Shown here: piece by piece, positions 37,532 to 57,114 of the stretch
How the letters are laid out: each line of letters begins with the position of its first letter
How positions within the stretch are numbered: the first letter of the stretch is position 1
Assembly (NCBI RefSeq): GCF_020734085.1
Contig: NZ_JAJAGH010000008.1
Coordinates: 5,743-69,742 of the forward strand
Direction of reading: 5' to 3'
Origin: Hominibacterium faecale
GTDB taxonomy: Bacteria > Bacillota > Clostridia > Peptostreptococcales > Anaerovoracaceae
DNA: 64,000 nucleotides
Notes under the pieces: generated by a model
Databases searched by the model: none
What the model was told of the DNA's origin: nothing
What the model saw: the letters and a program-made list of their open reading frames with translations, nothing else
Translations under genes and position numbers: made by a program

Positions 37532-37583
37532 ACAAGCGGTACAAAACATCTGATTTACAGGCCGCATAGATAAAAAGCAGAAA

Positions 37584-37623
37584 TAAGTCAAAAACGACTA
37601 TGTGAATAGTCGTTTTTGACTAT
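37584..37623. promoter_or_regulatory. perfect 16-bp inverted repeat AGTCAAAAACGACTAT-gtga-ATAGTCGTTTTTGACT (candidate EBP UAS)
   Basis: Lies about 170 bp upstream of the sigma-54 promoter at 37783. The same motif family recurs at 37670-37687 and at 54193-54315. Confidence 0.45.
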
Positions 37624-37782
37624 AAAAATAACGTTGTTTGGGATGAATTCCTTCCTATTTTAAGAGCGGATAGTCAATTTTAGCTAGCAATAAAAATGCC
37701 TGGCTAAAATGAAATTGAAGAAAAACCTTTTGTTTCAAGGAAATAGAAGGTTTTTTGTGCGTTTCTTGAAACTAAATGTATT

Positions 37783-37798
37783 TGGCATACAATTTGCA
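37783..37798 (+). promoter_or_regulatory. sigma-54 promoter TGGCATacaatTTGCA
   Basis: Canonical -24 GG / -12 GC spacing, about 127 nt upstream of the GAPDH start. Confidence 0.55.
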
Positions 37799-37924
37799 AT
37801 ATATTAAGGTCAGTATATTATCAACAAGGACTCGGAGGCGCCGTTAATGCAGCTTGCAGATCATGCCATCTGCGGAGCTTTAAAAAAGGTGATTCCGGAA
37901 ATGAGTGAACGAGGAGGAGAAACA

Positions 37925-38947
37925 ATGACGAATGTATTAGTGGTGGGTTATGGAACAATTGGACAGAGGCTTGCCGACGGGGTTAGTCTGCAGGACGATA
38001 TGAATCTGATTGGAGTTGTGGACGCGGCAATGAGTCTGTCGATCAGGGCCCTGAAAGAAAAAGGCATGCCATATGATCTTTATGCAGTAAACGAAACGTG
38101 CCGGGCCGAGCTTGCAGCAAACGGGATTCCAGTCCGCGGACTTTTGGAGGAAGCACTTGAGAAAACAGACATTGTATTGGATGCGACATCCGCAGGTGTT
38201 GGTGCGAAAAATAAAGAGCAATATAAAAAATATGGGGTTAAAGCGGTCTTCCAGGGCGGCGAGAAAAATGATGTGGCAGATGTGTTTTTTCACGGATATG
38301 CCAACTATGAAAAAGGCCTCCATGCGGATTTCCTAAAGCTGACATCCTGCAACACAACCGGATTGATCCGGGCAGTAGACTGCCTCGATAAAAAATGCGG
38401 GATTGAGAAGGTCGCGATTACCATTGTACGGAGAGTTGCGGACCCGGGAGATTACCACAGAGGATTGACCAATGCGCTGCAGGTTGACAAAGCGCCCAAT
38501 CATCAGGCACTGGATCTGATGACGATTTTGCCGGAAATTAAAGCGACCGGAATCCTGGTGCACGCACCGGTAACCCATGGACACTTTATTACCGTAGTGG
38601 CAACACCGAAGAGAGATATATCAGTGAAGGAGGCAATCGATACATTCAAAGAGCACAACCGTATTCGCATGGTCAGACTGGATGAAGGATTTCAGGGCAA
38701 TGCTTCAATCTTCAAATACGCAAGAGATCTTGGAAGGCCAAGAGGCGATCTGTATGAAATCTGCATCTGGGAGGACACCATCGTAAAATCTGGTAAGGAT
38801 ATTATGTTTGGAATACATATTCCACAGGAATCGGTAACCATTCCTGAGACGATTGATGCGATTCGTGCGGCAATGGCCATGGATACAGACGGAAAAACAG
38901 CGGTGGAAAAGACCAACAAGAATCTTGGCCTGGGAGGATGGAAATGA
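37925..38947 (+). CDS. type II (archaeal-type) glyceraldehyde-3-phosphate dehydrogenase family protein
   Basis: Start at MTNVLVVGYGTIGQR (GAGGAGGAG RBS). SCNTTGL catalytic-Cys motif and overall collinearity with archaeal GAPDH (for example Methanothermus) rather than bacterial GapA. Confidence 0.75.
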   Translation: MTNVLVVGYGTIGQRLADGVSLQDDMNLIGVVDAAMSLSIRALKEKGMPYDLYAVNETCRAELAANGIPVRGLLEEALEKTDIVLDATSAGVGAKNKEQYKKYGVKAVFQGGEKNDVADVFFHGYANYEKGLHADFLKLTSCNTTGLIRAVDCLDKKCGIEKVAITIVRRVADPGDYHRGLTNALQVDKAPNHQALDLMTILPEIKATGILVHAPVTHGHFITVVATPKRDISVKEAIDTFKEHNRIRMVRLDEGFQGNASIFKYARDLGRPRGDLYEICIWEDTIVKSGKDIMFGIHIPQESVTIPETIDAIRAAMAMDTDGKTAVEKTNKNLGLGGWK

Positions 38948-40188
38948 TTAAATGGAAAACAGTGGACGATTATGATTATCGGAACAAAGTGACCTTGCTG
39001 CGAGTGGACATCAACTCTCCAATCCACCCAGGTACGAAGAAAATTGTAAACGAAAACAGGATTCATAAAAGCGCGCCAACCATCCAGAAGCTGTTAGATA
39101 AAGGTACGAAGCTGGTGATCATCGCGCACCAGGGGGATACGCTGGATTACGAAAACCTGATCCCTATGGAAGAACATGCTCAAAAGTTGAATCAATATAT
39201 AAACGGGAGTATCCGCTATATTGATGATCCCTGCGGTCCGGCAGCACAGGAAGAAATCCGAAAGCTGAAGGCTGGAGAAGGACTTTTACTGGGAAACTTG
39301 CGCTATCTTACTGAAGAGACTTCAACCTTTGAGAATGTGGTAAAGCTAAAGCCAGAATTGATGGAACAGACCTACCTGGTACGATCCCTGCTTCCTTTAT
39401 GTGATTATTATGTCAACGACGCCTTTTCCGCAGCCCATAGAAATGCACCTTCCATGGCTGCATTCCAGAGGCTTCTTCCTACGGCAGCAGGCGAGCTGAT
39501 GTGCCGGGAAGTTGAAGCGCTGGATCAGATTATTGAATCTCCGGACCACCCATGTCTGTTTGTGTTAGGAGGTGCAAAGATTTCCGATGCCTTTGGCATG
39601 ATGAAGCAAGTTCTGGAAACAGGCAAAGCGGATAAAATTCTTACTTGCGGAGTTACAGGTGAAATTATGCTGATGGCGAAAGGCTATTCATTGGGAGAAA
39701 AAAAGGAATTATTTATCCGCGAGCGGGGACTGGACCGTTTCGTACAGGAGGCAAGGCAATATCTTGATAAATACCCACAAAAGATCGATTATCCAGTTGA
39801 TGTGGTGTATGAAAGAAGCGGGGAACGCTGTACGCTGGACATTGACGAATTGCCCAAGTCAGAACTGTTTATGGACATTGGAGAAAAAACGATTGAGCAC
39901 TATCGACGAGAAATCATACAAGCAAAAACCATTTTTGTAAACGGACCTGCAGGCGCTTATGAAAATCCGCTTTTTGAAAGAGGAACGAAAGAAGTCTGGG
40001 AAGCGATTGCAGCTGCAAAAGGCTATTCTGTCATCGGAGGCGGCGACACCGTCAGTGCGGCGCAGCGCTATATTAATCTGGATGATATTGGTTATGTCTG
40101 CACTGCAGGAGGTGCGATGGTGAGGTATGTATCCGGGACAAAACTGCCTTTAATCGAGGCCATGGACGGTGCACAATCAAAAGGTTAA
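38944..40188 (+). CDS. phosphoglycerate kinase family protein (archaeal-type)
   Basis: RVDINSPI, VNDAFSAAHR and GGAKISDAFGM / GGGDT PGK motifs. The ATGA start overlaps the GAPDH stop. Confidence 0.75.
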   Translation: MIKWKTVDDYDYRNKVTLLRVDINSPIHPGTKKIVNENRIHKSAPTIQKLLDKGTKLVIIAHQGDTLDYENLIPMEEHAQKLNQYINGSIRYIDDPCGPAAQEEIRKLKAGEGLLLGNLRYLTEETSTFENVVKLKPELMEQTYLVRSLLPLCDYYVNDAFSAAHRNAPSMAAFQRLLPTAAGELMCREVEALDQIIESPDHPCLFVLGGAKISDAFGMMKQVLETGKADKILTCGVTGEIMLMAKGYSLGEKKELFIRERGLDRFVQEARQYLDKYPQKIDYPVDVVYERSGERCTLDIDELPKSELFMDIGEKTIEHYRREIIQAKTIFVNGPAGAYENPLFERGTKEVWEAIAAAKGYSVIGGGDTVSAAQRYINLDDIGYVCTAGGAMVRYVSGTKLPLIEAMDGAQSKG

Positions 40189-40219
40189 AAGAACAGAGAT
40201 TCTGGGAAAGGAAAACAAA

Positions 40220-41287
40220 ATGAATACATATAAAATTGCAGTAATCGGCGGAGACGGCGTAGGACCGGAAGTTTGCAGGGAAGGAAAAAAGGTTCTGCAT
40301 AAAATTGCAGAGCTGGATAAGGGCATCGGATTTGAATTTGAGGATTTCCCCTGGGGATGTGAATATTATCTGGAGCATGGTGAAATGATGCCGCAGGATG
40401 CCCTGGAGACTCTAAAAAAATTTGATGCCGTTTACTTGGGAGCAGTTGGATTTCCGGGGGTACCGGACCATATTTCTTTGTGGGATATTCTGCTGAAAAT
40501 CAGAAAAGGGTTTGATCAATATATCAACCTGCGGCCGATCAAGCTGCTGAAAGGAGCCCCATGTCCGCTTGCAGGTGTAAAGCGCGAGCAGATTGACATG
40601 CTGGTTGTGCGGGAAAACAGCGAAGGCGAATATGCAGGAAGCGGAAGCTGGATGTACAAGGGAAAAATCAACGAAGTGGTGATACAGGACAGTGTTTTTT
40701 CCAGACTGGGATGTGAAAGGGTGATTCGCTATGCGTATGAATTAGCAAAAAAAGAGAAGAAAACATTGACAAGCATTAGCAAAGCCAATGCACTTAATTA
40801 CTCCATGGTATTTTGGGATCAGATTTTTGAAGAGGTCGGACGGGAATACCCGGATGTGGAAACCTACTCCTATCTGGTGGATGCGGCAAGCATGTTTTTT
40901 GTAAAAGAACCTGAGCGGTTTCAGATCGTAGTAACGTCCAATTTGTTCGGAGATATTCTCACCGATTTAGGGGCAGCGATTGCGGGAGGTATGGGACTTG
41001 CCGCAGGGGCAAATATCAATCCGGAAAGGCTCTATCCGTCCATGTTTGAGCCGATCCACGGATCTGCGCCCGACATTGCGGGAACCGGGCAGGCAAATCC
41101 CCTTGCAGCGGTCTGGTCAGTCAGCCAGATGATGGACTTTTTCGGTTATGAGGAATGGGGAAAACGCATATTGGATGCCATTGAACAGCTTCTTACAGAA
41201 AAAAAGAGCCTGCCACGCGACTTAGGAGGGAGTTCGACAACAGAAGCTGTCGGAAATGAAATTGTGCGGCTGCTGGAACGGGCGTAA
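40220..41287 (+). CDS. tartrate dehydrogenase / D-malate / 3-isopropylmalate dehydrogenase-family decarboxylating dehydrogenase
   Basis: Start at MNTYKIAVIGGDGVGPEV. NLFGDILTDLGA signature. 355 aa. Confidence 0.7.
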   Translation: MNTYKIAVIGGDGVGPEVCREGKKVLHKIAELDKGIGFEFEDFPWGCEYYLEHGEMMPQDALETLKKFDAVYLGAVGFPGVPDHISLWDILLKIRKGFDQYINLRPIKLLKGAPCPLAGVKREQIDMLVVRENSEGEYAGSGSWMYKGKINEVVIQDSVFSRLGCERVIRYAYELAKKEKKTLTSISKANALNYSMVFWDQIFEEVGREYPDVETYSYLVDAASMFFVKEPERFQIVVTSNLFGDILTDLGAAIAGGMGLAAGANINPERLYPSMFEPIHGSAPDIAGTGQANPLAAVWSVSQMMDFFGYEEWGKRILDAIEQLLTEKKSLPRDLGGSSTTEAVGNEIVRLLERA

Positions 41288-41342
41288 AGGGTAAAGGGAT
41301 AAAATGCGGCAACGCCGCATTCAATGGGGAAAATCGTATACC

Positions 41343-42425
41343 CTAAGAATAAAAGACCCGCTGAAAAAGCTGATGTCTTCCGCTGATATCCAATTTCTGA
41401 TAGATATTGGATACATGCTTTTTTACGGTAGGCATACTGATTTGACATTGCTCCATGATTTCCGTATTGCTGAGGCCGTTTACCAGATACTGGAGCACTT
41501 CGTATTCCCGGAGGGTCAGGTGATTGGTCTCTTTGATGGAAAGAAGGATATTGTCGATGATGGTGGAATAGTCGTAAACACAGCAGGAGAAGGTCTGGTC
41601 AGAATCGTTGTAGCTGACGTTGACGTAATAGGACTTATCTTCCAGGTTGATTTTACTGTGGGTTTTCAAAGTTTCAGACACTTTGGAAGCGCCTCGGGCC
41701 GAGATTTCCTGCTTTAGCGTCTCGCACATGGCAGTAAACATATTCCGGATCGTATCCAGAGAGAGCTGAGAATGCAGGCCGGTGGTAATATTGGAATGCA
41801 TGATGTTCAGATCCCGGTCGTAAACCATGTACACCAGAATATTATCGTGAGAAAACATAGTATATTTGCTTTTATCCAGATTATGCTTTGCCTCACAAAC
41901 ATCCTGAACGATTCTGGACAAGTGCAGTTTGAACATTTTGATCAATTCCAGATCCTGCGCGGTAAAATCCTCAGATTGCTTTGACCGATGCAGCCCAATG
42001 CCGCAGACATATCCACTGGGGGAATTTTCCACAAAGAGATTGCCCTCGATGGAATAATACATATTGCAGGGCTTGAGGCATTCTTTAAAATAGCGGGTTT
42101 TCTCCCGCTCAGAGCGGGTAAAAATCTCCGAGCTTTTGAAGATGATGGGCTGTTTCAAAGAAACGATAGGCAGAGCATCGTCCATGTCACAGACCTTGAA
42201 ATAATAGTTCAGATCCTTTCCCCATCCGGCAAAGATAAAATTTTCAAATCGAATGCTGTTCTGCCCTTTTTTAAAAATATAAATATCGCCTTTTTCAAAG
42301 AAGCAAAGTTTCTTTAGTTCTTCAAGAAAGTGCTGCAAAGCGTCGATTTTATTGTATGCAACATATAAATCCGAAATCATTTTGTTAAACGTATAAAATT
42401 CATTTTCATTAAAGGTAAATGCCAT
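41343..42425 (-). CDS. LuxR-family transcriptional regulator with large N-terminal sensor domain
   Basis: C-terminal GerE/LuxR HTH (LTLREYEVLQYLVNGLSNTEI...). Start at MAFTF (AGGAAA RBS). Divergent from the GRE operon. Confidence 0.7.
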   Translation of the reverse strand: MAFTFNENEFYTFNKMISDLYVAYNKIDALQHFLEELKKLCFFEKGDIYIFKKGQNSIRFENFIFAGWGKDLNYYFKVCDMDDALPIVSLKQPIIFKSSEIFTRSEREKTRYFKECLKPCNMYYSIEGNLFVENSPSGYVCGIGLHRSKQSEDFTAQDLELIKMFKLHLSRIVQDVCEAKHNLDKSKYTMFSHDNILVYMVYDRDLNIMHSNITTGLHSQLSLDTIRNMFTAMCETLKQEISARGASKVSETLKTHSKINLEDKSYYVNVSYNDSDQTFSCCVYDYSTIIDNILLSIKETNHLTLREYEVLQYLVNGLSNTEIMEQCQISMPTVKKHVSNIYQKLDISGRHQLFQRVFYS

Positions 42426-42643
42426 AATATTTCCTCTGCATAACATTTAGCAAAAACAGACTGTATATTTATTATATTTGATTGTATTTGAAAAGTAAAT
42501 GTTCAATTCGGCAAGGTATACCAACGGCTACCATGGAAAAAATCCTACTGCAGAACAATTGTCAGAAAACTTGATCGGGTATATAGTTAATCTATACTTG
42601 GAAAAGACAAGACAACGGATAAAATGACGAAGGAAGGGAGTGA

Positions 42644-42916
42644 AAGAAAACGAATATAAAATTTAGAGCAGCCAGCCCGGCGATTACAGACGGCAGGCTG
42701 GCTGACAGATATGGGAGCTGGTCCAGAGAAGCTGAAATCGCCTATGGTATCCCGCTTACATCTTTTCCCCTCCGGTGGGAAGGGGTACCTGCGGGCACAA
42801 AGAGCTATGCGGTCATCTTTATGGATAACGACAACGCAAAAGGGGAAGGATTTCCTTTTATACATTGGCTGGCCTGCAACATTCCGGGGGAAATGACCGA
42901 GCTTTACTACGGATAG
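42644..42916 (+). pseudogene. truncated PEBP/YbhB-family gene remnant (no start codon, premature stop)
   Basis: Frame encodes ...PLRWEGVPAGTKSYAVIFMDNDNAKGEGFPFIHWLACNIPG, which matches the N-terminal half of YbhB. It ends 9 codons later, 21 nt before the GRE start. No ATG/GTG/TTG upstream in frame. Confidence 0.45.
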
Positions 42917-42937
42917 AAAGAGAAGGGAGCAAATCAC

Positions 42938-45343
42938 ATGAACACAGAAAACAGAACTTTTTCTTTAGAAGGGGAAAACCATTTCCCCAGAATTGAAAAG
43001 CTGATCGAAGACTACAGAAAAGCCCGGCCCAGCGTAGATATCGAGCGGGCCAGAATCTATACCGAGTCTTTCAAAGAAACAGAAGGGGAAGACATCATTA
43101 CCAGACGGGCCCAGGCCTTCAAGGATTACTGCGAGAAAAGAGAGATACGGATTGCAGACCACCAGCTGATTGCAGGCGATGTCGCCAGAATCCCCAGGGC
43201 TGGAGTTGTAGACCCGGTGTTTCACTGCGGCTGGCTCAGCGAAGAACTGGACACCATTTCCACAAGAAAACAGGATCCCTATTTCATTTCGGAAGAGGAT
43301 AAAAAAGAACTGCGGGAAACCATTTTTCCATATTGGAAAGGCAAAATTGTCAGCGAACTCTGGCTCCGCCAAATCCCGCCTTATGTAAGAGAAATGGCCG
43401 TCAAGACCGGCATCATCGACGTGGAGATCAAAACTCAGAGCGCGGCCGGAGAGACAGCTCCTTACTGGGAAAAGGCCATGAATACCGGCCTGGGACAGAT
43501 GGAAAAGGAGCTTGCGGAGGCCATCGACGCTCTGGATCCGATTGATCCGGAAAGCTATGAAAAAATTACGTTTTATAAAGCCTGTAAGATGACCTTAGAA
43601 GGCTTAAAGCATTATATCCTGCGGTTTGCCGGTCTGGCTGAAGAGCAGGCCGATCAGGCGGCAGGCAAAAGAAAGGAGGAGCTGGAACGCATTGCTGCCA
43701 ACTGCCGCTATCTTTCAGATAACAAACCAAAAACCTTCTGGCAGGGGCTGCAGCTTACTTACTTCATCCTGGCAGGCTGCATGATGGAAGGCAACGGCCC
43801 TTCCTATTCGCCGGGAAGAATGGACCAGTATCTGTATCCTCTGTACGCAAAGGATATGGAAGAAGGAAGACTGACGGATGCACAGACGCTGGAGCTGATC
43901 GAGGCATTCTATGTAAAGACAGCGGAATCCACTTGGTTTCTCAGTGCAAATGCGGCCATGTACTTTGCGGGATATCAGCCGTTTCACAGCATTATCGTAG
44001 GCGGGATTGACAAGAGGGGAAAGGATGCGACCAACCAGCTGTCCTACCTGTTTATCACAGCTAAAATGGATGTACAGCTTCACAGCCCCTCTCTGTGCGC
44101 CCGGGTACACCAGCAGTCGCCAGAGGAGCTGATTGCCCACATCGCCAAACTGGCCAGACTGGGAACCGGATTTCCGGCTATCTATAACGATGAAGTCGCC
44201 ATTAAGATGATGCTGCTGTCCGGAGGAACGATGGAAGAGGCCAGAGACTATCAGATGGTTGGGTGTGTTGAGCCGTTTATGGGCGGCAAGATGGCCAAAT
44301 GGTCAGACGGCGGCCACTACAACTATGCGGCGGCCATGGAATTCGTTCTCCATAACGGAAGAAGCATTATCAATGAGAACAAGCTGCTGGGTTTGGAAAC
44401 AGGTGATCCACAGGACATGACTTACGATGAAATCAAAGATGCGGTGAAACAGCAGCTCAAATATATGATCGAGTCCATCAGCATCTGCGCCAATGTCAAT
44501 GAGAAGGTCTGCGCAGAGCTGACACCGTACCCGTTTATTTCCACATTCCTGGAAGGGACGTTACATACAGGAAAAGATCTGACCCGGGGTGGTGTGAAAT
44601 ATACCATCGGACCGGCGCTGATCGGCACAGGCATTGCAGATCTGGTTAACTCGCTTTCCGCAATTAAGAAGCACGTCTTTGATGATAAGACGATTACTAT
44701 GGGTGAGTTGATCCAGGCACTGAAAGCAAATTTTGATGGTTATGAAAAAATCCGTCTCATGCTGCAGAATACAACGCCGATGTACGGAAATGACATTGAA
44801 GAGGTGGATGCGCTGGCAGGAGAAATGACTGATTACGCCTACAGTGTGATTTCCCAGTGCAAATCCTGGAGAGGTCCGCACTTTATTTCCGGTCTGTACC
44901 CGGTATCCTCACATGTTCCCCACGGACTGGTGGTAGGCGCTCTGCCTTATGGGCGGCTTTCAGGAAAGGCCCTTGCGGACGGATGCTTCCCAAATGGCGG
45001 AACCGACCACGAAGGACCAACTTCCGTATTAAAATCGGTTTCCAGAATCAATCACGAAGTCCATACCTCGGGCACCCTGCTGAATATGAAACTGGACCCT
45101 CAAAGTGTTTCGGGAGATTTGGGAATCAAGCGGATTTCCGACATCATCCGTACATTTGTAGACTTGAATATCTATCACATTCAGTTCAATGTAGTGAGCC
45201 GTGAGCTGCTGCGAGCAGCGCAGGACAAACCGGAAGAACACAAATCACTGATCGTGCGAGTAGCCGGATATAGCGCCTACTTCACGGAACTTTGTGAAGA
45301 AATGCAGGACGACATCATCAACAGAACCATACATCAGGCTTAA
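42938..45343 (+). CDS. glycyl radical enzyme, glycerol/diol-dehydratase-like clade (substrate unknown)
   Basis: 801 aa. VGCVEP Cys-loop. C-terminal glycine radical motif RVAGYSAYF. Block-by-block similarity to C. butyricum glycerol dehydratase as recalled, but the NGHS active-site stretch reads NGPS here. Confidence 0.85.
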   Translation: MNTENRTFSLEGENHFPRIEKLIEDYRKARPSVDIERARIYTESFKETEGEDIITRRAQAFKDYCEKREIRIADHQLIAGDVARIPRAGVVDPVFHCGWLSEELDTISTRKQDPYFISEEDKKELRETIFPYWKGKIVSELWLRQIPPYVREMAVKTGIIDVEIKTQSAAGETAPYWEKAMNTGLGQMEKELAEAIDALDPIDPESYEKITFYKACKMTLEGLKHYILRFAGLAEEQADQAAGKRKEELERIAANCRYLSDNKPKTFWQGLQLTYFILAGCMMEGNGPSYSPGRMDQYLYPLYAKDMEEGRLTDAQTLELIEAFYVKTAESTWFLSANAAMYFAGYQPFHSIIVGGIDKRGKDATNQLSYLFITAKMDVQLHSPSLCARVHQQSPEELIAHIAKLARLGTGFPAIYNDEVAIKMMLLSGGTMEEARDYQMVGCVEPFMGGKMAKWSDGGHYNYAAAMEFVLHNGRSIINENKLLGLETGDPQDMTYDEIKDAVKQQLKYMIESISICANVNEKVCAELTPYPFISTFLEGTLHTGKDLTRGGVKYTIGPALIGTGIADLVNSLSAIKKHVFDDKTITMGELIQALKANFDGYEKIRLMLQNTTPMYGNDIEEVDALAGEMTDYAYSVISQCKSWRGPHFISGLYPVSSHVPHGLVVGALPYGRLSGKALADGCFPNGGTDHEGPTSVLKSVSRINHEVHTSGTLLNMKLDPQSVSGDLGIKRISDIIRTFVDLNIYHIQFNVVSRELLRAAQDKPEEHKSLIVRVAGYSAYFTELCEEMQDDIINRTIHQA

Positions 45344-45360
45344 ATACAGGAGATTTGTCA

Positions 45361-46269
45361 ATGAAGGAAAAACGGACAGGGATTATCTTTAATACGCAGA
45401 AATTTTCCATACATGACGGCGGCGGGATACGGACCCTGATTTTTATGAAGGGCTGCCCGCTGCGGTGTATCTGGTGCAGCAATCCGGAATCCCAGAGGCC
45501 GGAGCCGGAGATCACAGATGTAAAAACCAATTGTATTGGCTGCGGAGACTGCGTTTGTGTATGTCCGAAGGAGGCAGTCAATCCGTTGACCTTTCAGATT
45601 GACCGGGGCAAGTGCGATGCCTGCGGCCTGTGCGCGAAAAGCTGCTACGCACAGGCTAAAAAGCTGACCGGTCAGGTAGTGACTGTGGAGGAGCTGGTGA
45701 ATATCGCTGTAAAGGATCAGGTCATATACCGGAATTCAGGCGGCGGTGTGACGGTCGGAGGCGGCGAGCCTCTGACCCAGCCGGACTTCGTTTACGAGTT
45801 TCTCCGTGCCTGCAGCATGCGCAACATCCATACGGCCATTGAAACCTGCGGCTTTGGAGACTGGTCTGAGGTGGAAAAGGTTTTTCACCAGGCCGATCAG
45901 ATTTTATTTGATTTGAAATGCATGGATGAGGAAAAGCATCGGGCGTATACTGGCGTAAGTAATAAAAGCATCCTGCTCAACGCAGAAAAGGCGGCGGCCT
46001 CAGGCAAAGAGATCCGCTTTCGGGTCCCGGTGATCCCAGGGGTAAACGACGGGGAGAATATACGGCAAACCGGAGCGTTTGTCCGTGGGCTGCAGAGGCA
46101 AAACAGTCAGGTGAAGGTTGAACTGCTGCCTTATCATAATTTTGGAAAAGACAAGTATAAATGGCTCGGCAGAAAGTATGATCTGGAGCCTTTAGAGCGT
46201 ATGGAAAAAGAGGAGTTGGGCCGATATTACAAGGTGTTGGAAGAATTGGACTGTAATGTCGTATATTAA
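45361..46269 (+). CDS. glycyl radical enzyme activating protein (radical SAM, with two extra ferredoxin-like clusters)
   Basis: CPLRCIWCSNPES radical-SAM motif. CIGCGDCVCVCP and CDACGLCAKSC motifs. AGGAG RBS. ATG at 45361. Confidence 0.85.
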   Translation: MKEKRTGIIFNTQKFSIHDGGGIRTLIFMKGCPLRCIWCSNPESQRPEPEITDVKTNCIGCGDCVCVCPKEAVNPLTFQIDRGKCDACGLCAKSCYAQAKKLTGQVVTVEELVNIAVKDQVIYRNSGGGVTVGGGEPLTQPDFVYEFLRACSMRNIHTAIETCGFGDWSEVEKVFHQADQILFDLKCMDEEKHRAYTGVSNKSILLNAEKAAASGKEIRFRVPVIPGVNDGENIRQTGAFVRGLQRQNSQVKVELLPYHNFGKDKYKWLGRKYDLEPLERMEKEELGRYYKVLEELDCNVVY

Positions 46270-46272
46270 AAA

Positions 46273-49782: not shown

Positions 49783-49794
49783 AGGCTGCTCCTT

Positions 49795-50217
49795 TTACCG
49801 GTTGTGCTTGAGGCGGTTGCTGTCTTGCAGGATTTCGCCTGCCTCCCGGACGAACTGAGCGGTCTCAGCGGCTCCGTATTTGTTTTCCAAAGCATCGGCA
49901 ACCGCTAAAATGTCTTCCATTTCACTACGGAAAGGGCGAATAGTGTTATAGACTTCCAAAATATAGTCATCGGGAACATTGGTCAGCTCCGCCGCGCGCC
50001 GCAGATTGGCCGCAATCTGAATATCGCCTGCCGACTGGGCGATTTCGGCCTGCATCAGCAAGGTGTCCTTGTGGATCTTTCCGTCCTCCATTTTGACCGT
50101 CCCTGCCAGAACGTTTTCCATGGTCAGTTGGCCTATGGGTCTTCCGGACATGGCTTTCAGTTTGTCAGGGTGCTTTTCCAGGAGTGGATAATCGGTTTTG
50201 TAATTTAAGGTATTCAT
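49795..50217 (-). CDS. B12-dependent diol/glycerol dehydratase small (gamma) subunit
   Basis: DYPLLEKHPD and RRAAELTNVPDDYILEVYNTIRPFRS match PddC/DhaB3. Confidence 0.8.
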   Translation of the reverse strand: MNTLNYKTDYPLLEKHPDKLKAMSGRPIGQLTMENVLAGTVKMEDGKIHKDTLLMQAEIAQSAGDIQIAANLRRAAELTNVPDDYILEVYNTIRPFRSEMEDILAVADALENKYGAAETAQFVREAGEILQDSNRLKHNR

Positions 50218-50241
50218 GGGTTTTGCCGTTCCTTTCTGTAA

Positions 50242-52467
50242 TTATATAAAAGAGACTTCAAGCTCTACCGGTTTGATGTTTTTGATCTGAGCTGTTTCGT
50301 GGTTGTGAAGAAGGGTTGTTTTCAACATATAAAATCTCGTGCTGCTGTCGATATCGCCGGGAAGCGGTTCAGGGCTTTCCCCTTTTGCGTATTTGGCCGC
50401 ATTTTTTCCGATAGCCCGGTAGGTTTTTTTGTCATAAAGCGGCGACTGAGGGAAAAGCTCCAGATTGTCCAAAGGTACCAGATCTTTTTGATGGATCACC
50501 GTAGTCCCTCTTGACTGGATACCGATGCTGATGCCTGAGCCGCTCAGCCTGGAACCTGCGCTGCTGATTACAGCCAGATCAGAGGAGCTGTAGCATTTGA
50601 TAAAGCGCGGTTTCATGCCTTCCTCTTCGATGCCGGCAGCAAGCTCGCGGAGCACGATTTCATGGGGGAGGTCTACGATGGTCTTTCGCTGCTGCTGCCC
50701 AAAGCTTGGAGAAACTGCAATAACAACTTCATCTGGATTTGTACCAGGAGCGGCAGGGCCGCATTCGGTGATGCCATTGATGTAGGATTCATCCCTGGAG
50801 TCGATAAAGTCATCTGTGGAAACAGCGCCCATGTGCTGCTGCATCTGATCCCACCGCGCATCCGAGATCTGATAGCCGGTCGTCGGTCCGGCATAGTCGT
50901 TTTCGTTATTGATCGCGCTTATCACGTGGAAGTTTTCGTCAAAGATTGCAGAGGTGTGCAGATAGTCTCCTGCCACGCGCTGCTTGAGCATGGTCAGGAT
51001 GTTTTCTGCAAGCTCCTCGTATCCGGCCTGGTACAAAACCTTCACAATATCAAAACCATTAAAATCGCTTTCCATAATGTGGGTAGCCGCTTTTATGTCT
51101 TCTGCAACGTTTCTCTTTGGCATATCGGAAGATTTGTAGGCGTAAACAGCAGCCTCTACTTCTTCATCGGTGATCTCAGGAAAATCCATCGCGTAGAACA
51201 GTGCCTGCATAGCCTGGGCTGCTTTGCGGCGATGAGCAATTACCTCCTCATTGCTGACTGGATGCAGTGCTCCATCTACCTTCATATCGCGCTGAACCAT
51301 ATAATAGTTGGCGTAGTTATCGCAGTCCATGGTGCTGGCGGAGAAGGTGTTGTCGCAGTTGGGAATAGAGGCATACCCGGAGGTGACCAGATCGGTGCCG
51401 GGCAGCATCTGCATCAGTAGCTTGGACATGCTGCGAGCCAGAGAGTGGGAAAAATAGGTGTCGTTACCAGAGGCTACTTCCAGTCCCAGCATAGAGGTCA
51501 GCAGATTTTCTGCGGCAACAGCCCGAAGCCCTGAGGGCATGGACGAGGATAGGGGCAGTCCGTCGATAGAACCGTTCTGCGTGCCCTGGGAGCCGCCAGC
51601 TTTTACCATCCAGACACAGCGCGCTTCCAGATACAGCATGGATTTTCCTTCCGCATAGCCCATCATGACCTCAGAGCCGGTACCAGAGGAAAAACGCATT
51701 TTCATACCCCGGGCGGCGTAGGCGGATGCCAGGAAAGATTTTGACCAGGGAGTATCATCTCCGTCAGACATGACCGCCTCGGTACCATATACGGAAACGG
51801 TTTCTGCGTAAGAGGTGAAGCCCTTCATGCCGATCTTCAATTCGGTGGCTTCCTCCAGGGAACACTGGGTGATAACGCCTGGGCGGCCGACCTGGCTTCC
51901 GATCATCAGCGCAATCGCGTTGAGCGGTGCGCAGCGAGTCACACTGCAGGTAGTCTCCAGTTCGGCAAAACCGCGGAGGGCAGCTTCGGCGGCATCGGCA
52001 GCCATCAGTACCGGATTGTCCAGCAGGTTGGTCACATGGGCCTGATTGGCCGGACTTTTTCTGGCTCGCATTTTCATTTGTGCCATCATGATTTCCACAA
52101 CGTTCATTTTGCTGACCACATCGACCAGTTTGGCAGGAGTCAGGCCGGAGGCAATCTTCAAAAGGTCACGTCTTGAAACGTTGATATCTACCAGCATCTT
52201 TGCGATTTCCGCGGAATCAAGGGCCATAGAGGTTTCCGCCTCAGAGACATTGATTCCATATTTAACAATAAATTTGTCGATAAAGTCAAATTCATCCCTG
52301 GTTTTTCCATCCATCTCCACAATCTGGCCATCTATGATTTTAATGCTGGGGCGAGGGTCGTTGGGGCTGTCCAGTGCGACTAAACCGACTGCAGGATCCT
52401 CCCACGCGATAACATCTTGGGTTACAGGGGCCTGCTCATATTTTTGTCTTCGTTTTGTTGATTTCAT
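50242..52467 (-). CDS. B12-dependent diol/glycerol dehydratase, fused large+medium (alpha-beta) subunit
   Basis: 741 aa. SPNDPRPSIKI, QCSLEEATELKIGM, TSYAETVSVYGTE and GDDTPWSK are collinear with Klebsiella PddA. The C-terminal 190 aa (EVVIAVSPSFG...) is beta-subunit-like. Confidence 0.85.
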   Translation of the reverse strand: MKSTKRRQKYEQAPVTQDVIAWEDPAVGLVALDSPNDPRPSIKIIDGQIVEMDGKTRDEFDFIDKFIVKYGINVSEAETSMALDSAEIAKMLVDINVSRRDLLKIASGLTPAKLVDVVSKMNVVEIMMAQMKMRARKSPANQAHVTNLLDNPVLMAADAAEAALRGFAELETTCSVTRCAPLNAIALMIGSQVGRPGVITQCSLEEATELKIGMKGFTSYAETVSVYGTEAVMSDGDDTPWSKSFLASAYAARGMKMRFSSGTGSEVMMGYAEGKSMLYLEARCVWMVKAGGSQGTQNGSIDGLPLSSSMPSGLRAVAAENLLTSMLGLEVASGNDTYFSHSLARSMSKLLMQMLPGTDLVTSGYASIPNCDNTFSASTMDCDNYANYYMVQRDMKVDGALHPVSNEEVIAHRRKAAQAMQALFYAMDFPEITDEEVEAAVYAYKSSDMPKRNVAEDIKAATHIMESDFNGFDIVKVLYQAGYEELAENILTMLKQRVAGDYLHTSAIFDENFHVISAINNENDYAGPTTGYQISDARWDQMQQHMGAVSTDDFIDSRDESYINGITECGPAAPGTNPDEVVIAVSPSFGQQQRKTIVDLPHEIVLRELAAGIEEEGMKPRFIKCYSSSDLAVISSAGSRLSGSGISIGIQSRGTTVIHQKDLVPLDNLELFPQSPLYDKKTYRAIGKNAAKYAKGESPEPLPGDIDSSTRFYMLKTTLLHNHETAQIKNIKPVELEVSFI

Positions 52468-52620
52468 TTCCTACTCCTTTTCTACTTTGGTTTCTTTAAG
52501 AATCCCTGTGAGGACCATAAAAGTTTCCTCGTAACCTTATTTTAACATAAAGATTGCTCAATATTCTGAAAATTCTCCTGAGAAACGATGGGGACGAAAA
52601 TCTTTATGCTATTTAATAAA

Positions 52621-52635
52621 GCAAATTTTATGCCA
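52621..52635 (-). promoter_or_regulatory. sigma-54 promoter (minus strand: TGGCATaaaatTTGC)
   Basis: Plus strand reads GCAAattttaTGCCA. Lies about 155 nt upstream of the dehydratase start. Confidence 0.55.
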
Positions 52636-52758
52636 AAGATAATCGGCCCTAAAGAATAATGATAAAACTATACTGGCGGCTACTGTTGGAATGGGGCGTT
52701 TTCTGCTATAATAAGAATGTAGAAAAAGCGGAGGCAAGTGGAAGGAGGATAGAGCATT

Positions 52759-54195
52759 ATGGAAAAAAAACATTCAGAGAAAAGCAGTTCGCCATGTGAA
52801 ACATGCCGCCATTATGAAGAAAAACGAATGGATATCTTGTTCGAAGTTATGGATAATGAGAATGATGTGACCTTAGCGGACGGGAAGGGCGTTGTGCTGA
52901 GAGTCAGCGATTCCTACGAAGACCATTTCGGTCTGAAGAAAGAGGAAATTATAGGTAAAACCGTGTGGGAGCTGGAGGATATGGGGGTCTTTAAGCCGTC
53001 GGTAACTGCTGCTGTTTTGGAAAAGAAGAAAAACACCACCATTATGCAGAAGAACAAACAGGGGCGGGATGTACTGACTACTGGTGTTCCTGTTTTCGGA
53101 AAAGATGGAGAAATCGCATATGTAGTCAGCTTTAATTCGATTCATATTGCAGGCGTTACGAGCCTGCAGAGCCAATATGAACAGTTAAACACAATGATGC
53201 AAGCGTATAATCAGGAAATCAATAAGCTTCGATTAAGAGATTTGAGAGAAAAGAAATTTATCAAAAAGAGTAAGAGTATGGAAAATATCAGCGAATTGAT
53301 TTCGCAGATTGCGGATACAAACGCGTCCGTATTGATTACAGGAGAAACGGGTGTGGGAAAAAGTATGGTTGCCAAGCTCATTCATGAAAACAGCAACCGT
53401 TCAGAAGGCCCTTTTGTGGAGATCAACTGCGGGACAATTCCTGAAAATTTAATCGAATCCGAACTGTTCGGCTATGAAAAAGGATCCTTTACAGGAGCCA
53501 ACAGCAAAGGGAAAATAGGAAAAATAGAGCTGGCAAAAGGAGGAACTTTGTTCCTGGACGAAATCGGCGAAATCTCGCTCAATCTGCAAATTAAATTTCT
53601 GCAGGTCATACAGGAAAAATTGATAACAAGAGTAGGTGGACTTAGTAAAATCGAGGTGGATTTCCGTCTGATCACCGCGACGAACCGCGACCTGGAAGAC
53701 GATATTCATCGGGGGCTCTTTCGGGAGGATTTGTTTTATCGTCTGAATGTAATACCAATTCATATTCCGCCTCTGCGCGAACGCAGGGAAGATGTCCTGC
53801 CGTTGATTTTGAATGCTTTGGAACGGTTTAATTCTCAATATGGAAGACATATAAAATTGTCGGCAGATGCCCTTCAGATATTGGAACGGCAGACGTGGCC
53901 CGGGAACATCCGCCAGATAGAAAATCTGGTTGAACGGATGGTCGTTACTTCCAGGGGCGAGCTAATAAGGATAGAAGACCTGCCTGCTGACTTGGAATGG
54001 GAGACCATGCAGCAGACGCCGGAAACAACGGGACAGCTGAAAGAACGGCTAGAAAATTATGAACGCAACATCTTTATCGATGCCTTTAAGGAACATCAGT
54101 CAAGCGTAGCAGTGGGAAAAGCCTTGGGAATCAGTCAGACAACGGCTGCGAGAAAGCTGCGTAAGTATATTCCGGGATATGCAAATTTGAACTAG
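52759..54195 (+). CDS. sigma-54-dependent transcriptional activator (PAS, AAA+, HTH)
   Basis: GETGVGKS Walker A, GSFTGA, ESELFGYEKGSFTGA, C-terminal HTH. AGGAGG RBS. Confidence 0.85.
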   Translation: MEKKHSEKSSSPCETCRHYEEKRMDILFEVMDNENDVTLADGKGVVLRVSDSYEDHFGLKKEEIIGKTVWELEDMGVFKPSVTAAVLEKKKNTTIMQKNKQGRDVLTTGVPVFGKDGEIAYVVSFNSIHIAGVTSLQSQYEQLNTMMQAYNQEINKLRLRDLREKKFIKKSKSMENISELISQIADTNASVLITGETGVGKSMVAKLIHENSNRSEGPFVEINCGTIPENLIESELFGYEKGSFTGANSKGKIGKIELAKGGTLFLDEIGEISLNLQIKFLQVIQEKLITRVGGLSKIEVDFRLITATNRDLEDDIHRGLFREDLFYRLNVIPIHIPPLRERREDVLPLILNALERFNSQYGRHIKLSADALQILERQTWPGNIRQIENLVERMVVTSRGELIRIEDLPADLEWETMQQTPETTGQLKERLENYERNIFIDAFKEHQSSVAVGKALGISQTTAARKLRKYIPGYANLN

Positions 54196-54228
54196 TCAAA
54201 AATAGCTATTATAGTCAAAAATGGCTAT
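54193..54228. repeat. tandem direct repeats TAGTCAAAAATAGCTAT / TAGTCAAAAATGGCTAT (candidate UAS), with a third degenerate copy at 54294-54315
   Basis: Same 16-17-bp motif family as the palindrome at 37584-37623. Confidence 0.4.
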
Positions 54229-54477
54229 GGTATGAAAAAGTGCTGTTATATTCAGATTTAGGCACGAGGAAGAGGAAAAAGGAGGTTTAAAAGTATAGCC
54301 AAAAATGCCTAGTCCTGCAACAGGCCCATGGTTGAAACCCTGGGATGAATCGAAATCTTTTGATCAAATTCCAGCAGGATAAAGGACTTGATTTTTTTAG
54401 TGCAAATCCGTAAATTCTCCTAAAATCCGTAACGCCCGAAAATTTTTTTGTCCTGCAGTTCAGTGATTTCTTAGTTT

Positions 54478-54493
54478 TGGCGCGAACCTTGCA
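54478..54493 (+). promoter_or_regulatory. sigma-54 promoter TGGCGCgaaccTTGCA
   Basis: Canonical GG/GC spacing, about 60 nt upstream of the permease start. Confidence 0.55.
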
Positions 54494-54551
54494 CTTTGAT
54501 TAATTTCGTAAAATCAAATTCATTATTCATATGTATTAAGGAGGTATCGCT

Positions 54552-55925
54552 ATGAACGAACACGACAGGGCTGTACAAGCCAGTGAACCCAAGCTAAAGA
54601 GGGTGCTTGGAACTCCCGGCCTGGTCTTTTTTGGTTTGGCATTTATGAACATTACATCGATTATACTGGGTTATGCAATCGTTGATCAAATGACACATGG
54701 AATGGTGCCGCTCTCCATCCTGATCTCATTTGTGGTCATGCTGATCACAAGCTTCAGCTATAAACAGATGTCCATGCAATATCCGATGTCCGGATCCGCC
54801 TACACCTACACTTCTAAGGCAATCAATCCATATGTAGGTTTTTTTACCGGCTGGGCGATTCTTTCCACCTATCTGATCCTTCCCGGATATAACTTCTTGT
54901 TGTTCGCATTGTACATGAATGTTTTAATTCCCGGTGTCCCTATGTGGGTTTGGATCGTAGCCTCAATCGTCATCGTTGGCGTGATTAACTTTTTAGGAAT
55001 CAAGCTGCTTTCTATTGTAGATGCAATTTTTGTAGTTATTTTTGCTGTATTGCTTACTGCGATTGCGATTTCTGCTATCGTTCATCTGTCCGGAAATCCA
55101 ACTGCTCCCGGGTTCTTCGATGGTCTGGCGAATCTGTATAAGCCGGAAGCGGCAAGTGAAGTTGGAGGAATGGGCATTTTACAGGGTGCGGCATATATCT
55201 GTTTTTGCTATTTGGGTTTTGATGCCATTTCAACGCTTGCTGAGGAAACGATTGATCCTACCAAAAAAGTTGGACGTTCTATGGTTCTTTCTGTTGCCAT
55301 AGGCGGTGCGATTTTATTGCTGTTTTCGTTCCTGTTTGATCTGTGCTGGTCTGATAAATGGAATATGTATGATAACCCGGATACAGGGGCAATCGAGATT
55401 ATCCGCTCTGTAGGCGGCGATACCCTTGGTTATATAACAAGCGCAATTTTGGTTGTTGGTGTCTTTGCTTCCGTATTGTCCATTGAGACTTCTGCGACAA
55501 GGCTGCTGTACGGAATGAGTTGTGATAAAGTAATGCCAAAATTCTTTTCCAAACTGCACCCGAAATTTAAAACTCCGGGTTATGGAATTATATTTGTGTC
55601 TGTTTTAGGCCTTTTGGCGCTTCTGCGGGATCTGGAGGTCATTGTTTCCCTGCTCAATGTTGGTGCGCTGATTGCCTTTATTCTTGTAAATATAGCGGTA
55701 ATCGCCCAGTTCTGGATCAAGAAAAAAGACAGGGCAGGCTTTATGAACAAGTTGAAATATTTAATCGCCCCGGTTATTGGTACGTTAAGCCTGGCGGTTG
55801 TACTGATCAATGTCGGAATATACGGCCTGGTTTTGGGATTTGTCTGGTTGCTGGCCGGCTTTATTTTTCTCGCGTACAGGACAAAGATGTTTAAAGAACT
55901 GCCGCCTACCTTGAAGGGGTTCTAA
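54552..55925 (+). CDS. APC-family amino acid/amine permease
   Basis: 12 TM. AGGAGG RBS. Confidence 0.8.
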   Translation: MNEHDRAVQASEPKLKRVLGTPGLVFFGLAFMNITSIILGYAIVDQMTHGMVPLSILISFVVMLITSFSYKQMSMQYPMSGSAYTYTSKAINPYVGFFTGWAILSTYLILPGYNFLLFALYMNVLIPGVPMWVWIVASIVIVGVINFLGIKLLSIVDAIFVVIFAVLLTAIAISAIVHLSGNPTAPGFFDGLANLYKPEAASEVGGMGILQGAAYICFCYLGFDAISTLAEETIDPTKKVGRSMVLSVAIGGAILLLFSFLFDLCWSDKWNMYDNPDTGAIEIIRSVGGDTLGYITSAILVVGVFASVLSIETSATRLLYGMSCDKVMPKFFSKLHPKFKTPGYGIIFVSVLGLLALLRDLEVIVSLLNVGALIAFILVNIAVIAQFWIKKKDRAGFMNKLKYLIAPVIGTLSLAVVLINVGIYGLVLGFVWLLAGFIFLAYRTKMFKELPPTLKGF

Positions 55926-55978
55926 TGGCCTTGGATACTGACAGTTTTGGGCCTTTGATCCGGGCCGGACGTCAGAGA

Positions 55979-56025
55979 AAGTATCGGAATTGATTTTAAA
56001 ACGCTTCAATTCCGATACTTTTTTC
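55979..56025 (+). terminator. intrinsic terminator
   Basis: 14-bp stem agtatcggaattga / tcaattccgatact followed by T6. Confidence 0.65.
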
Positions 56026-56232
56026 GTTTTTGCCGGAAGAAACAGTAACTTCTATCTTTTTTCCATCAGACACCTTGCGCCGTGACCGCATTGTGATATA
56101 ATTATTTAATCTGGGATTTTAGTATCTGATTCAGGCAGGTCAAGCTGAGTCAGCGGCTGGATTTCAGAATCTGAACCAAGAACAAGAAAAAGCCGGTAAA
56201 TCATTTGAATCATCGCCAGGCAGGAAATTTTT

Positions 56233-57087
56233 ATGAAAAAAACAGGTTTAATAAATTTGGAATATGTAAATACTGTAATTAAGGAACGTCCGAGGGACAT
56301 ACATAAAGGTGACTGCGGAAAGGTTCTTGTGATTGCAGGCTCAGTTGGCATGGCAGGCGCGGCCGTGCTTTGCGCGCGGGGAGCGCTGCGATCCGGAGCA
56401 GGACTCGTACGGATATCTGCTCCCAGAGAACTATATCCCATTCTGCAGGTGGGCGTACCGGAAGCCACATGTGTCCCGAGAGAGCTTTCCTTACCGGAAC
56501 TGATGGACAGCGATGCCATCGCAGTTGGTCCGGGGTTAGGAGATGATGGGCAGAACGCCAAGCTTATCCGTACAATCTTAAAGGAATATAAAAAGACCGT
56601 CGTCCTCGATGCCGATGGGATCAATACCATCAGCCGGGCGGATCTGCTGGATGAACTGCGGGAAACGAAGGCCCAAGTGATCATGACACCCCATCCTGGA
56701 GAGGCTGCAAGACTTCTCAGTTATTGCGGGATTGAAACTTCCCGGATGGACAGGCCCAAGACGGCCCAGCTGCTGGTGGAACAGACCCGGGCTACCTGCG
56801 TGCTCAAAGGCAGCGGAACCCAGGTGGCAACAAAAGACGGCGAATCATATACTAATACTACAGGAAACCCGGGAATGGCTGCCGGCGGCAGCGGAGATGT
56901 TCTGACAGGCATCATCGCAGCGCTGGCCGGACAGAAGCTTTCTCCGGCGGACTGTGCAAAGGCGGGAGTGTTCATCCACGGGATGGCAGGGGACCTGTGC
57001 GCCCAATCTCTTGGAGAGACGGGTATGACGTCCCTGGACCTGGCAAACATGGTTGCTCTTGCTTTCAAACAAATCATAGGAAAATAA
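56233..57087 (+). CDS. nnr: NAD(P)H-hydrate dehydratase (YjeF C-terminal domain type)
   Basis: HKGDCGKVLVIAGSVGMAGAAVLCARGALRSGAGLV is the YjeF_C signature. Confidence 0.75.
   Translation: MKKTGLINLEYVNTVIKERPRDIHKGDCGKVLVIAGSVGMAGAAVLCARGALRSGAGLVRISAPRELYPILQVGVPEATCVPRELSLPELMDSDAIAVGPGLGDDGQNAKLIRTILKEYKKTVVLDADGINTISRADLLDELRETKAQVIMTPHPGEAARLLSYCGIETSRMDRPKTAQLLVEQTRATCVLKGSGTQVATKDGESYTNTTGNPGMAAGGSGDVLTGIIAALAGQKLSPADCAKAGVFIHGMAGDLCAQSLGETGMTSLDLANMVALAFKQIIGK
56273..56293 (+). repeat. right-hand copy of the 21-nt segment (inside nnr)
   Basis: Identical to 37482-37502. Confidence 0.6.
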
Positions 57088-57114
57088 AACTTGAATAGAT
57101 AAGGAGTGAAGGAC

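Follow-up and report, generated by a model that had tools for sequence, protein, structure and literature searches.

Do two radical enzymes, an amine dehydrogenase and a GAPDH/PGK-like pair that lie side by side in one genome form a single catabolic pathway? The block that raises this question spans about 18.7 kb of a 64-kb stretch (the window, analysed at its full length) from Hominibacterium faecale, a human-gut anaerobe of the Anaerovoracaceae, and lies between a composite repeat scar and the gene nnr. The original prediction joined its genes into one sigma-54-controlled route, in which an imported compound, possibly an amino-diol or amino-polyol, is dehydrated by a radical enzyme and the resulting aldehyde is turned into an acid and ATP by the pair. 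From family memberships, motifs, gene neighbourhoods, the scar and residue substitutions, from which we infer every substrate and reaction named here, we tentatively favour another reading: a composite toolbox of separable modules for hydroxylated amines, brought together at a rearrangement junction.

Gene calls were taken from an open reading frame (ORF) listing and Pfam/NCBIfam profile scans of the window. They recovered every gene named in the original prediction (Table 1) and added a LuxR-family regulator, encoded between the GAPDH-like operon and the gene of the glycyl-radical enzyme (GRE). The first transcription unit holds the GAPDH-like, PGK-like and dehydrogenase genes, whose reading frames overlap. 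The LuxR gene forms a second unit on the opposite strand, and the GRE and its activase form a third. A fourth unit, on the minus strand, encodes a fused large and medium dehydratase subunit, the small subunit, the alpha and beta subunits of a reactivase and the amine dehydrogenase. The sigma-54 activator and the APC permease are encoded in further units. As predicted, the block harbors two radical enzymes of different mechanism, the B12 dehydratase and the GRE, and its gene inventory (37.5-56.3 kb) contains no bacterial microcompartment (BMC) shell, PduP/L/W or DhaT genes. Database entries of H. faecale and Ihubacter massiliensis for the block proteins carry generic names only.

The GAPDH-like/PGK-like pair is found far beyond this genome. 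A scan of relatives with one genome per species confirmed at least 545 GAPDH-like loci, and the best 80 were analysed for their neighbours. The GAPDH-like relatives are 65-83% identical to the window protein and occur in Bacillota, Spirochaetota, Victivallales, Gammaproteobacteria, Chloroflexota and other groups. A PGK-like gene is adjacent in 78 of the 80 loci. No gene for a B12 dehydratase, a GRE, an amine dehydrogenase or an APC permease lies in any of the 80, nor is tpi, gpm or eno a neighbour in any of them. Recurrent neighbours are a LarA-like gene (42 loci), malic enzyme (29), a split transketolase (29 and 27), IolD/E/G-like genes (26 each), IolB (21), a sigma-54 activator (8) and a class-III aminotransferase (7); the last of these is missing from the window, though present in the GAPDH-like loci of relatives. 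Two architectures were found. One comprises a sugar ABC transporter, malic enzyme, the GAPDH-like and PGK-like genes, split transketolase, IolB, IolD, IolE, IolG and the LarA-like gene, and the other a sigma-54 activator, class-III aminotransferase, the GAPDH-like and PGK-like genes, malic enzyme, the LarA-like gene and a TRAP or ABC transporter. The families IolC, IolJ and IolA do not recur in the GAPDH-like clusters. The LarA-like neighbour is a malate racemase, matching Mar2 (6D6Z, E = 1.4e-123) better than lactate racemase (241 bits). In some clusters a dehydrogenase of the window type stands in for racemase and malic enzyme (58% identity), as does the Iso_dh gene in the Iol/transketolase/GAPDH-like cluster of Clostridium ganghwense; the window dehydrogenase passes the TIGR02089 equivalog cutoff (Table 1) and is named D-malate dehydrogenase by one source. 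To judge from these neighbourhoods, the pair is very probably an independent, widespread, non-glycolytic and ATP-yielding module. The ATP-forming role proposed for it is thus supported, but not its supply by a dehydratase product.

The residues of the pair show both conservation and change. The GAPDH-like protein passes the type II GAPDH equivalog cutoffs (NF003251, 396.6 vs 185; TIGR01546, 300.5 vs 232.9) and, aligned to 2CZC, 1CF2, 2YYY and 1B7G, keeps the catalytic Cys in SCNTTG and the adjacent RR pair, which are invariant in the clade. The PSHHGPD motif of these four solved archaeal GAPDHs, which we take to have a role in phosphate binding, is absent; the window protein reads APNHQALD and the clade AP(S/N)HQA(V/L)D with H193 and Q194 invariant, so that the HH pair has become HQ. 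The PGK-like protein contains a full-length Pfam PGK domain (356.4 bits) and has no equivalog-level NCBIfam match, its sole match being PRK13962 (276 vs a cutoff of 883). Four residues of the basic patch for the 3-phosphate (R38, H62, R65, R122 and R170) are kept and R65 is Asp in the window. The sequence HQGDT or HQGSD is found in 64 of 70 PGK-like loci, in place of the HLGRP of canonical and the HQGKP of archaeal PGK; by this alignment, the clade has lost the basic residue (Arg65) that binds the phosphate of 3-phosphoglycerate. The changes in the two proteins fit an altered distal group on the substrate. With archaeal type II GAPDH and PGK (best solved matches 2CZC, 1CF2 and 2CUN) the pair shares fold family and catalytic Cys, and its predicted chemistry, from aldehyde to acyl phosphate to acid plus ATP, is the same. 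It differs in belonging to a bacterial clade whose members keep about 70% identity between phyla, always occur as a pair and are found with malate racemase, malic enzyme or D-malate dehydrogenase, never beside tpi, gpm or eno. In this clade Asp or Ser takes the place of PGK Arg/Lys65, and HQ that of the GAPDH HH.

A single aldehyde links these contexts. Removal of the ketol unit of 2-deoxy-5-keto-D-gluconate by transketolase leaves 3-hydroxy-4-oxobutanoate (malate semialdehyde) in the D configuration, the carboxylate analogue of D-glyceraldehyde 3-phosphate (GAP), and transamination of 4-amino-3-hydroxybutyrate gives the same aldehyde. We propose that a first module (module A) comprises the APC permease and the operon of the GAPDH-like enzyme, PGK-like enzyme and D-malate dehydrogenase, with their sigma-54 promoters and TAGTC-N6-GRCTA sites. 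The permease would import an omega-amino-beta-hydroxy acid, most simply 4-amino-3-hydroxybutyrate, and the native amine dehydrogenase would deaminate it to D-malate semialdehyde, a step for which relatives would use the class-III aminotransferase. The GAPDH-like enzyme would then convert the semialdehyde and phosphate to an acyl phosphate, the PGK-like enzyme would form D-malate and ATP from this acyl phosphate and ADP, and the dehydrogenase would yield pyruvate, CO2 and NADH. Formation of D-malate, followed either by racemase and malic enzyme or by D-malate dehydrogenase, would account for both architectures and for the window. In Acinetobacter, malic semialdehyde is converted to D-malate and then to pyruvate in the L-carnitine pathway, which has the same proposed intermediates and a last enzyme of the same decarboxylating D-malate dehydrogenase family (PMC11353897). 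That pathway uses a non-phosphorylating aldehyde dehydrogenase and an oxygenase, whereas the route of the window would be phosphorylating, ATP-yielding and anaerobic.

In the searchable literature we found no natural malate semialdehyde dehydrogenase of the phosphorylating type, malyl phosphate appears there in synthetic pathways only, and no published pathway was found that joins transketolase with inositol or malate semialdehyde, or a GRE with an amine dehydrogenase. Sulfonate or phosphonate substrates of the GAPDH-like enzyme, such as sulfolactaldehyde, were considered and dropped, since no context contains sulfoquinovose or sulfonate genes and malate-specific partners dominate. The Iol/transketolase/GAPDH-like cluster appears to be an undescribed lower branch of myo-inositol degradation that depends on transketolase and makes ATP by substrate-level phosphorylation; a paper on inositol in Dysosmobacter describes a different, aldolase-type route. 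The conserved set of IolG/E/D/B, split transketolase, the pair and malate racemase/malic enzyme was found in loci L017, L019, L026, L027, L032, L033, L036, L040, L043, L056, L061, L085 and others, and thus in many anaerobes. In Anaerovorax odorimutans (L093, 4910-9990) the GAPDH-like, PGK-like, LarA and malic enzyme genes are directly preceded by those of a B12-binding protein of 587 aa, a putative reactivase of MutL/hydantoinase-like type (656 aa) and an aminotransferase; there the module is coupled to another radical enzyme.

Promoter sites were sought over the whole 64 kb with TGGCACN5TTGCW, one mismatch allowed. Four -24/-12 sites were found. The three that had been proposed (37783+, 52620- and 54478+) are intergenic and correctly oriented, and the fourth lies within the GRE gene. 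Looser matches do not exceed the number expected by chance, and therefore the position of the sites, not their count, carries the promoter argument. The 16-mer AGTCAAAAANNNCTAT occurs in four exact copies (37586+, 37606-, 54194+ and 54213+) and nowhere else in the window, and the observed match count was reached in 0 of 100 shuffles; the shared upstream motif already suspected at 37783 and 54478 is thus real in the window. The GAPDH-like and permease promoters share TAGTC-N6-GRCTA sites upstream, while the dehydratase promoter has no such motif, and the consensus scan found no -24/-12 element in the leader of the GRE operon. Of the single sigma-54 regulon proposed for the block, the activator and the three promoters remain, but the GRE falls under LuxR and the dehydratase promoter stands apart. 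In relatives, TAGCC-N6-GGCTA sites are present at the aminotransferase and GAPDH-like promoters, and the paralogous sigma-54 activators have an identical recognition helix, QTTAARKLRKY.

Module B would be the sigma-54-dependent B12 dehydratase with its reactivase, acting on a vicinal diol with a cationic group. The enzyme aligns gap-free to Klebsiella glycerol dehydratase and keeps all Ca2+/diol ligands. Ser302 and Gln337 (Ser301 and Gln336 in diol dehydratase numbering), which presumably contact the C3-OH of glycerol, are replaced by Asp and Thr. This signature defines a subfamily, being found in about 33 of the 120 closest fused dehydratases. Elsewhere, Asp302 orthologues stand apart from the other modules, in one context beside a PEBP-family gene and a MerR regulator, in another beside genes for an APC permease, a DUF3156 protein, a sigma-54 activator and an amidohydrolase. 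The Asp302/Thr337 pocket is most economically explained by a cationic vicinal diol as the probable substrate. As in the Pdu and Dha systems (PduCDE-GH, DhaB), there are large, medium and small subunits, a two-subunit reactivase and the Ca2+/diol ligands, and the large subunit scores 872.6 against the NF011979 cutoff of 788. Unlike them, the window system has fused alpha and beta subunits, the Asp/Thr substitutions throughout its subfamily, sigma-54 control and an amine dehydrogenase at the end of the operon, without BMC shell, PduP/L/W/Q or DhaT. A comparison with plasmids gave weak similarity to pduC only. A PEBP/YbhB (PF01161) remnant with a stop after about 90 codons lies directly upstream of the GRE, and intact copies are present in Asp302 dehydratase operons of other organisms.

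Module C would be a LuxR-controlled glycyl-radical 1,2-eliminase, for which a small amino alcohol is the probable substrate. Like CutC, HpyG/HpzG, HypD and the glycerol/propanediol dehydratases, the GRE has the CXE motif (GCVEP), the RVAGY glycine loop and an activase encoded next to it. Among solved structures HpyG and CutC come closest, and the scores against HpyG, CutC and glycerol dehydratase are 555-604 bits. The GRE remains below every equivalog cutoff (CutC, 652 vs 1050; HypD, 571 vs 1100; HpsG, 627 vs 1000; HpfG also missed) and carries Glu at the position of the ammonium-binding Asp216 of CutC. Eight orthologues from metagenomes (72-76% identity) are accompanied only by LuxR, the activase and an EutH (4 loci) or NCS1 (4 loci) permease, partners that set it apart from the known 1,2-eliminases, and because of them a small amino alcohol is the likely substrate. 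A 2026 review lists only ten 1,2-eliminases, with CutC as the sole C-N-cleaving GRE and no enzyme of the kind found here. The amino-diol/amino-alcohol class suggested by the original prediction agrees with the pocket of the dehydratase and with the acidic residue of the GRE. It also agrees with the permeases encoded beside orthologues in other organisms, EutH with the GRE and APC with the dehydratase. No single compound was found that suits the dehydratase chemistry and also leads to malate semialdehyde.

The amine-dehydrogenase-like gene proved to encode a member of the native amine dehydrogenase family, with a full-length match to 6IAU (E = 1e-82) and the catalytic Glu kept in CEEAFYPW. To our knowledge, the physiological role of this family is undefined. 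Homology to CfusAmDH (6IAU) and MsmeAmDH (6IAQ) is full-length and includes the catalytic Glu, but the pocket residues Phe140/Phe144 of CfusAmDH are Ala/Gly in the window protein, which also has a 16-residue insertion and, unlike the known enzymes, is encoded within a radical-dehydratase operon. The gene ends the dehydratase operon in the window and in a second species, and follows a different GRE in a third locus (L098). More distant homologues lie in housekeeping contexts.

The modules are arranged differently in this second species (L100/L101/L125). It has orthologues of the GRE (72%), of LuxR and of the activator (81%), and a dehydratase operon that includes a PEBP gene and the amine dehydrogenase (86%). 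An aminotransferase, a paralogous activator (60%), malic enzyme, malate racemase and the PGK-like and GAPDH-like genes are present as well. Relative to this species, the window has lost the aminotransferase and the second activator, with the PEBP gene reduced to a pseudogene fragment before the GRE. A dehydrogenase has taken the place of racemase and malic enzyme, and an APC permease that of an ABC transporter. Repeated co-localisation argues for a functional relationship between the modules, which is plausible, and the finding of each module on its own elsewhere speaks against one obligatory chain. In the second species (L125-L127, about 8319-9750) the sigma-54 activator gene beside the dehydratase is broken into two reading frames in each of three independent assemblies, perhaps by frameshift or pseudogenisation.

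Several observations weigh against the toolbox of separable modules. All modules recur together, rearranged, in the second species, which points to a tighter functional link. The amine dehydrogenase required by module A sits in the dehydratase operon. The block's single activator is orthologous (81%) to the dehydratase-linked one of the second species, and not to the GAPDH-linked paralogue there (60%). The GAPDH-like protein passes the type II equivalog cutoffs with both anion-site arginines kept, so activity on GAP is possible, and the acidic residue at PGK Arg65 is not obviously demanded by a carboxylate substrate. Finally, a gut source of 4-amino-3-hydroxybutyrate is conjectural.

The first of these points suits a branched, Dha- or Stickland-like fermentation of one hydroxylated amine, which we consider rather unlikely. 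Here the B12 dehydratase and the GRE would be cofactor alternatives for the same or a close substrate and, with the amine dehydrogenase working as a reductive aminase of imines or aldehydes, would form an electron-sink branch, while amine dehydrogenase, GAPDH-like enzyme, PGK-like enzyme and D-malate dehydrogenase would form an oxidative, ATP-yielding branch. Besides the whole gene set of the second species, with LarA and malic enzyme and an ABC transporter as replacements, an amine dehydrogenase follows a radical enzyme within one operon in three arrangements (that of the window, that of L100/L125 and that of L098, where the GRE is another one), and the same aminotransferase orthologue (77-93% identity) lies beside the GRE/amine dehydrogenase operon of L098 and beside the GAPDH-like operons of L091 and L100. 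The PEBP gene, associated with the dehydratase elsewhere, has its remnant before the GRE in the window, and GRE dehydratases acting on hydroxyprolines are followed by imine reductases (PMC13450708). Against this, each module is found alone elsewhere with its own transporter, the GRE of L098 is only 39% identical to that of the window, and regulation is split between sigma-54 and LuxR, with the dehydratase promoter outside the shared motif. Moreover, no compound could be named that both fits a vicinal-diol dehydratase and yields malate semialdehyde; 3-amino-1,2-propanediol, 4-hydroxythreonine, 5-hydroxylysine, 2-hydroxyputrescine and carnitine were all considered and rejected.

The linear route of the original prediction, from amino-diol import through a radical dehydratase aldehyde to an acyl phosphate, ATP and the final dehydrogenase, is quite improbable. 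All its genes are present and adjacent, three units have sigma-54 promoters and, with PduP, PduL, PduW and DhaT absent, the block would otherwise have no step to handle the dehydratase aldehyde. The 0 of 80 GAPDH-like loci with a dehydratase or GRE and the conserved partners pointing to malate semialdehyde speak against it, and the GAPDH-like enzyme, with its identity of about 70% between phyla, is likely to have a single conserved substrate. Diol dehydratases yield aldehydes with CH2 beside the carbonyl, and malate semialdehyde is an alpha-hydroxy aldehyde, the type implied by the GAPDH family and the transketolase context. A dehydratase product is therefore an unlikely substrate for the GAPDH-like enzyme, and the predicted route is probably wrong at its central join.

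That the pair consists of ordinary extra glycolytic or gluconeogenic isozymes draining triose phosphate from neighbouring sugar pathways would suit the equivalog-level type II match, the retained catalytic Cys and RR pair, the four of five basic 3-phosphoglycerate-binding residues and the involvement of GAP in transketolase reactions, but is very improbable given the lack of tpi, gpm and eno in all 80 loci, aminotransferase/malate racemase/malic enzyme contexts that offer no source of GAP, the clade-wide loss of PGK Arg65 and the missed NCBIfam PGK equivalog cutoff.

A bolder reading, unlikely as a whole, is that the locus encodes an undescribed anaerobic fermentation of a hydroxylated amine. 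It would combine B12-dependent and B12-independent radical enzymes for cationic diols or amino alcohols (the GRE possibly joining CutC as another eliminase of C-N or beta-hydroxy-amine type), a first physiological function for a native amine dehydrogenase, natural substrate-level phosphorylation through malyl phosphate by recruited archaeal-type GAPDH and PGK, and completion by the same pair of the transketolase-dependent lower myo-inositol branch. If true, oxidation of malate semialdehyde with ATP formation would be a new substrate-level phosphorylation in hundreds of anaerobes, would reveal an inositol route without IolC, IolJ and IolA, and would explain the existence of malate racemases, the largest LarA group, whose in vivo role has been stated as open (PMC7583248). 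The dehydratases of the Asp302 subfamily and the EutH-linked GRE offer concrete candidates from the human gut for radical enzymes of amino alcohols or amino-diols. For native amine dehydrogenases, biocatalysts without a known native substrate, the operon context narrows the search.

The 50-bp composite scar proposed as the left boundary is indeed composite, being made of copies of nnr and mazF fragments. Its first part matches nnr at 25 of 27 bases, 21 of them consecutive and exact, and its second part matches mazF at 34 of 35; the two meet at the microhomology GTCCGA, and the window has no other direct repeat of 20 nt or more. The 18.7 kb between scar and nnr are therefore an insertion or rearrangement. 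The stop codon of the MFS gene (36355-37491) falls within the scar, so the 3' end of this gene was remodelled by the event. In the simplest history, the left side once carried a copy of the nnr-mazF target region, later collapsed by microhomology-mediated deletion. Base composition is not foreign (GC 0.43-0.52 in the block, 0.42-0.55 across the window), no tRNA gene was found, and the gene inventory has no integrase/recombinase or other mobility genes. All 24 + 24 conspecific contigs read carry the block in the same layout. The suspected acquisition thus keeps its bounded junction with duplicated target sequence but lacks foreign composition, mobility genes, a tRNA target and, among the conspecific contigs read, an empty site, marks otherwise expected of a recent acquisition.

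Table 1. Predicted features of the block and its boundaries (window coordinates)
Feature	Position	Strand	Basis
Composite scar, left boundary (nnr fragment copy fused to mazF fragment copy)	37476-37502 (nnr); 37497-37531 (mazF)		
Candidate upstream activator site, perfect inverted pair of AGTCAAAAACGACTAT	37586-37621		Motif search
Related candidate activator site TAGTCAATTTTAGCTA	37671-37686		Motif search
Sigma-54 -24/-12 promoter of GAPDH-like operon, TGGCATACAATTTGCA	37783-37798	+	Consensus scan
Type II (archaeal-type) GAPDH-like phosphorylating aldehyde dehydrogenase (predicted)	ORF 37847-38947, homologue-supported start 37925	+	Profile matches, alignment
Archaeal-type PGK-like acyl-phosphate:ADP kinase (predicted)	38938-40188	+	HQGDT vs canonical PGK HLGRP
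Tartrate/D-malate dehydrogenase (decarboxylating)	40169-41287	+	TIGR02089, 487.6 vs cutoff 470.4
LuxR-family regulator, partner of GRE	41343-42446	-	Pfam; orthologue neighbourhoods
PEBP/YbhB (PF01161) gene remnant	42644-42919	+	No start codon, premature stop
Glycyl-radical 1,2-eliminase	42938-45343	+	GCVEP and RVAGYSAYF motifs
GRE-activating radical SAM enzyme	45355-46269	+	Profile match
Native amine dehydrogenase family member, final gene of dehydratase operon	46402-47478	-	Homology to 6IAU
Dehydratase reactivase small (beta) subunit	47553-47897	-	Profile match
Dehydratase reactivase large (alpha) subunit, PduG-type	47890-49782	-	Profile match
B12 diol dehydratase small subunit	49795-50217	-	Profile match
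B12 diol dehydratase fused large and medium subunit, Asp302/Thr337 variant	50242-52467	-	Profile and alignment
Sigma-54 -24/-12 promoter of dehydratase operon	52620-52635	-	Consensus scan
PAS sigma-54 enhancer-binding activator	52759-54195	+	Profile match
Candidate upstream activator sites (exact direct copies 54194 and 54213, degenerate copy 54297)	54194-54312	+	Motif search
Sigma-54 -24/-12 promoter of permease gene	54478-54493	+	Consensus scan
APC-family permease	54552-55925	+	Profile match
Right-hand boundary repeat copy, within nnr codons 12-20	56267-56293	+	Repeat search
mazF source copy for second half of scar	57155-57189	+	Repeat search

The difference in length of the MFS protein between strains (378 vs 431 aa) was considered as an effect of the scar and rejected; it is a 159-bp in-frame deletion polymorphism near 37371 (seen with L003/L004), flanked by the short repeat GCAnTGGCAT. 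A split transketolase downstream (57480-59302) was rejected as the ancestral partner of the pair, as it lies beyond the scar-bounded block and is closer to a distant copy in L065 (354/335 bits) than to the cluster-linked transketolases (218-290 bits). The MazF/PemK toxin gene (57106-57477, +) follows nnr after an 18-nt gap, with no antitoxin gene visible between them. The two arms of a perfect 20-nt inverted repeat lie in the dehydrogenase gene (40438-40457) and in the permease gene (55090-55109), perhaps by chance or as a trace of recombination. Rfam gave no riboswitch in the block and, elsewhere in the window, a tetrahydrofolate (THF) riboswitch (RF01831) at 4486-4590 (+, 88.7 bits). The left neighbour of the block is a separate sigma-54 unit (33016-37491), with an activator of 469 aa (33016-34425), a promoter-like sequence (34641-34656), an Amidohydro_3 gene and the MFS gene.

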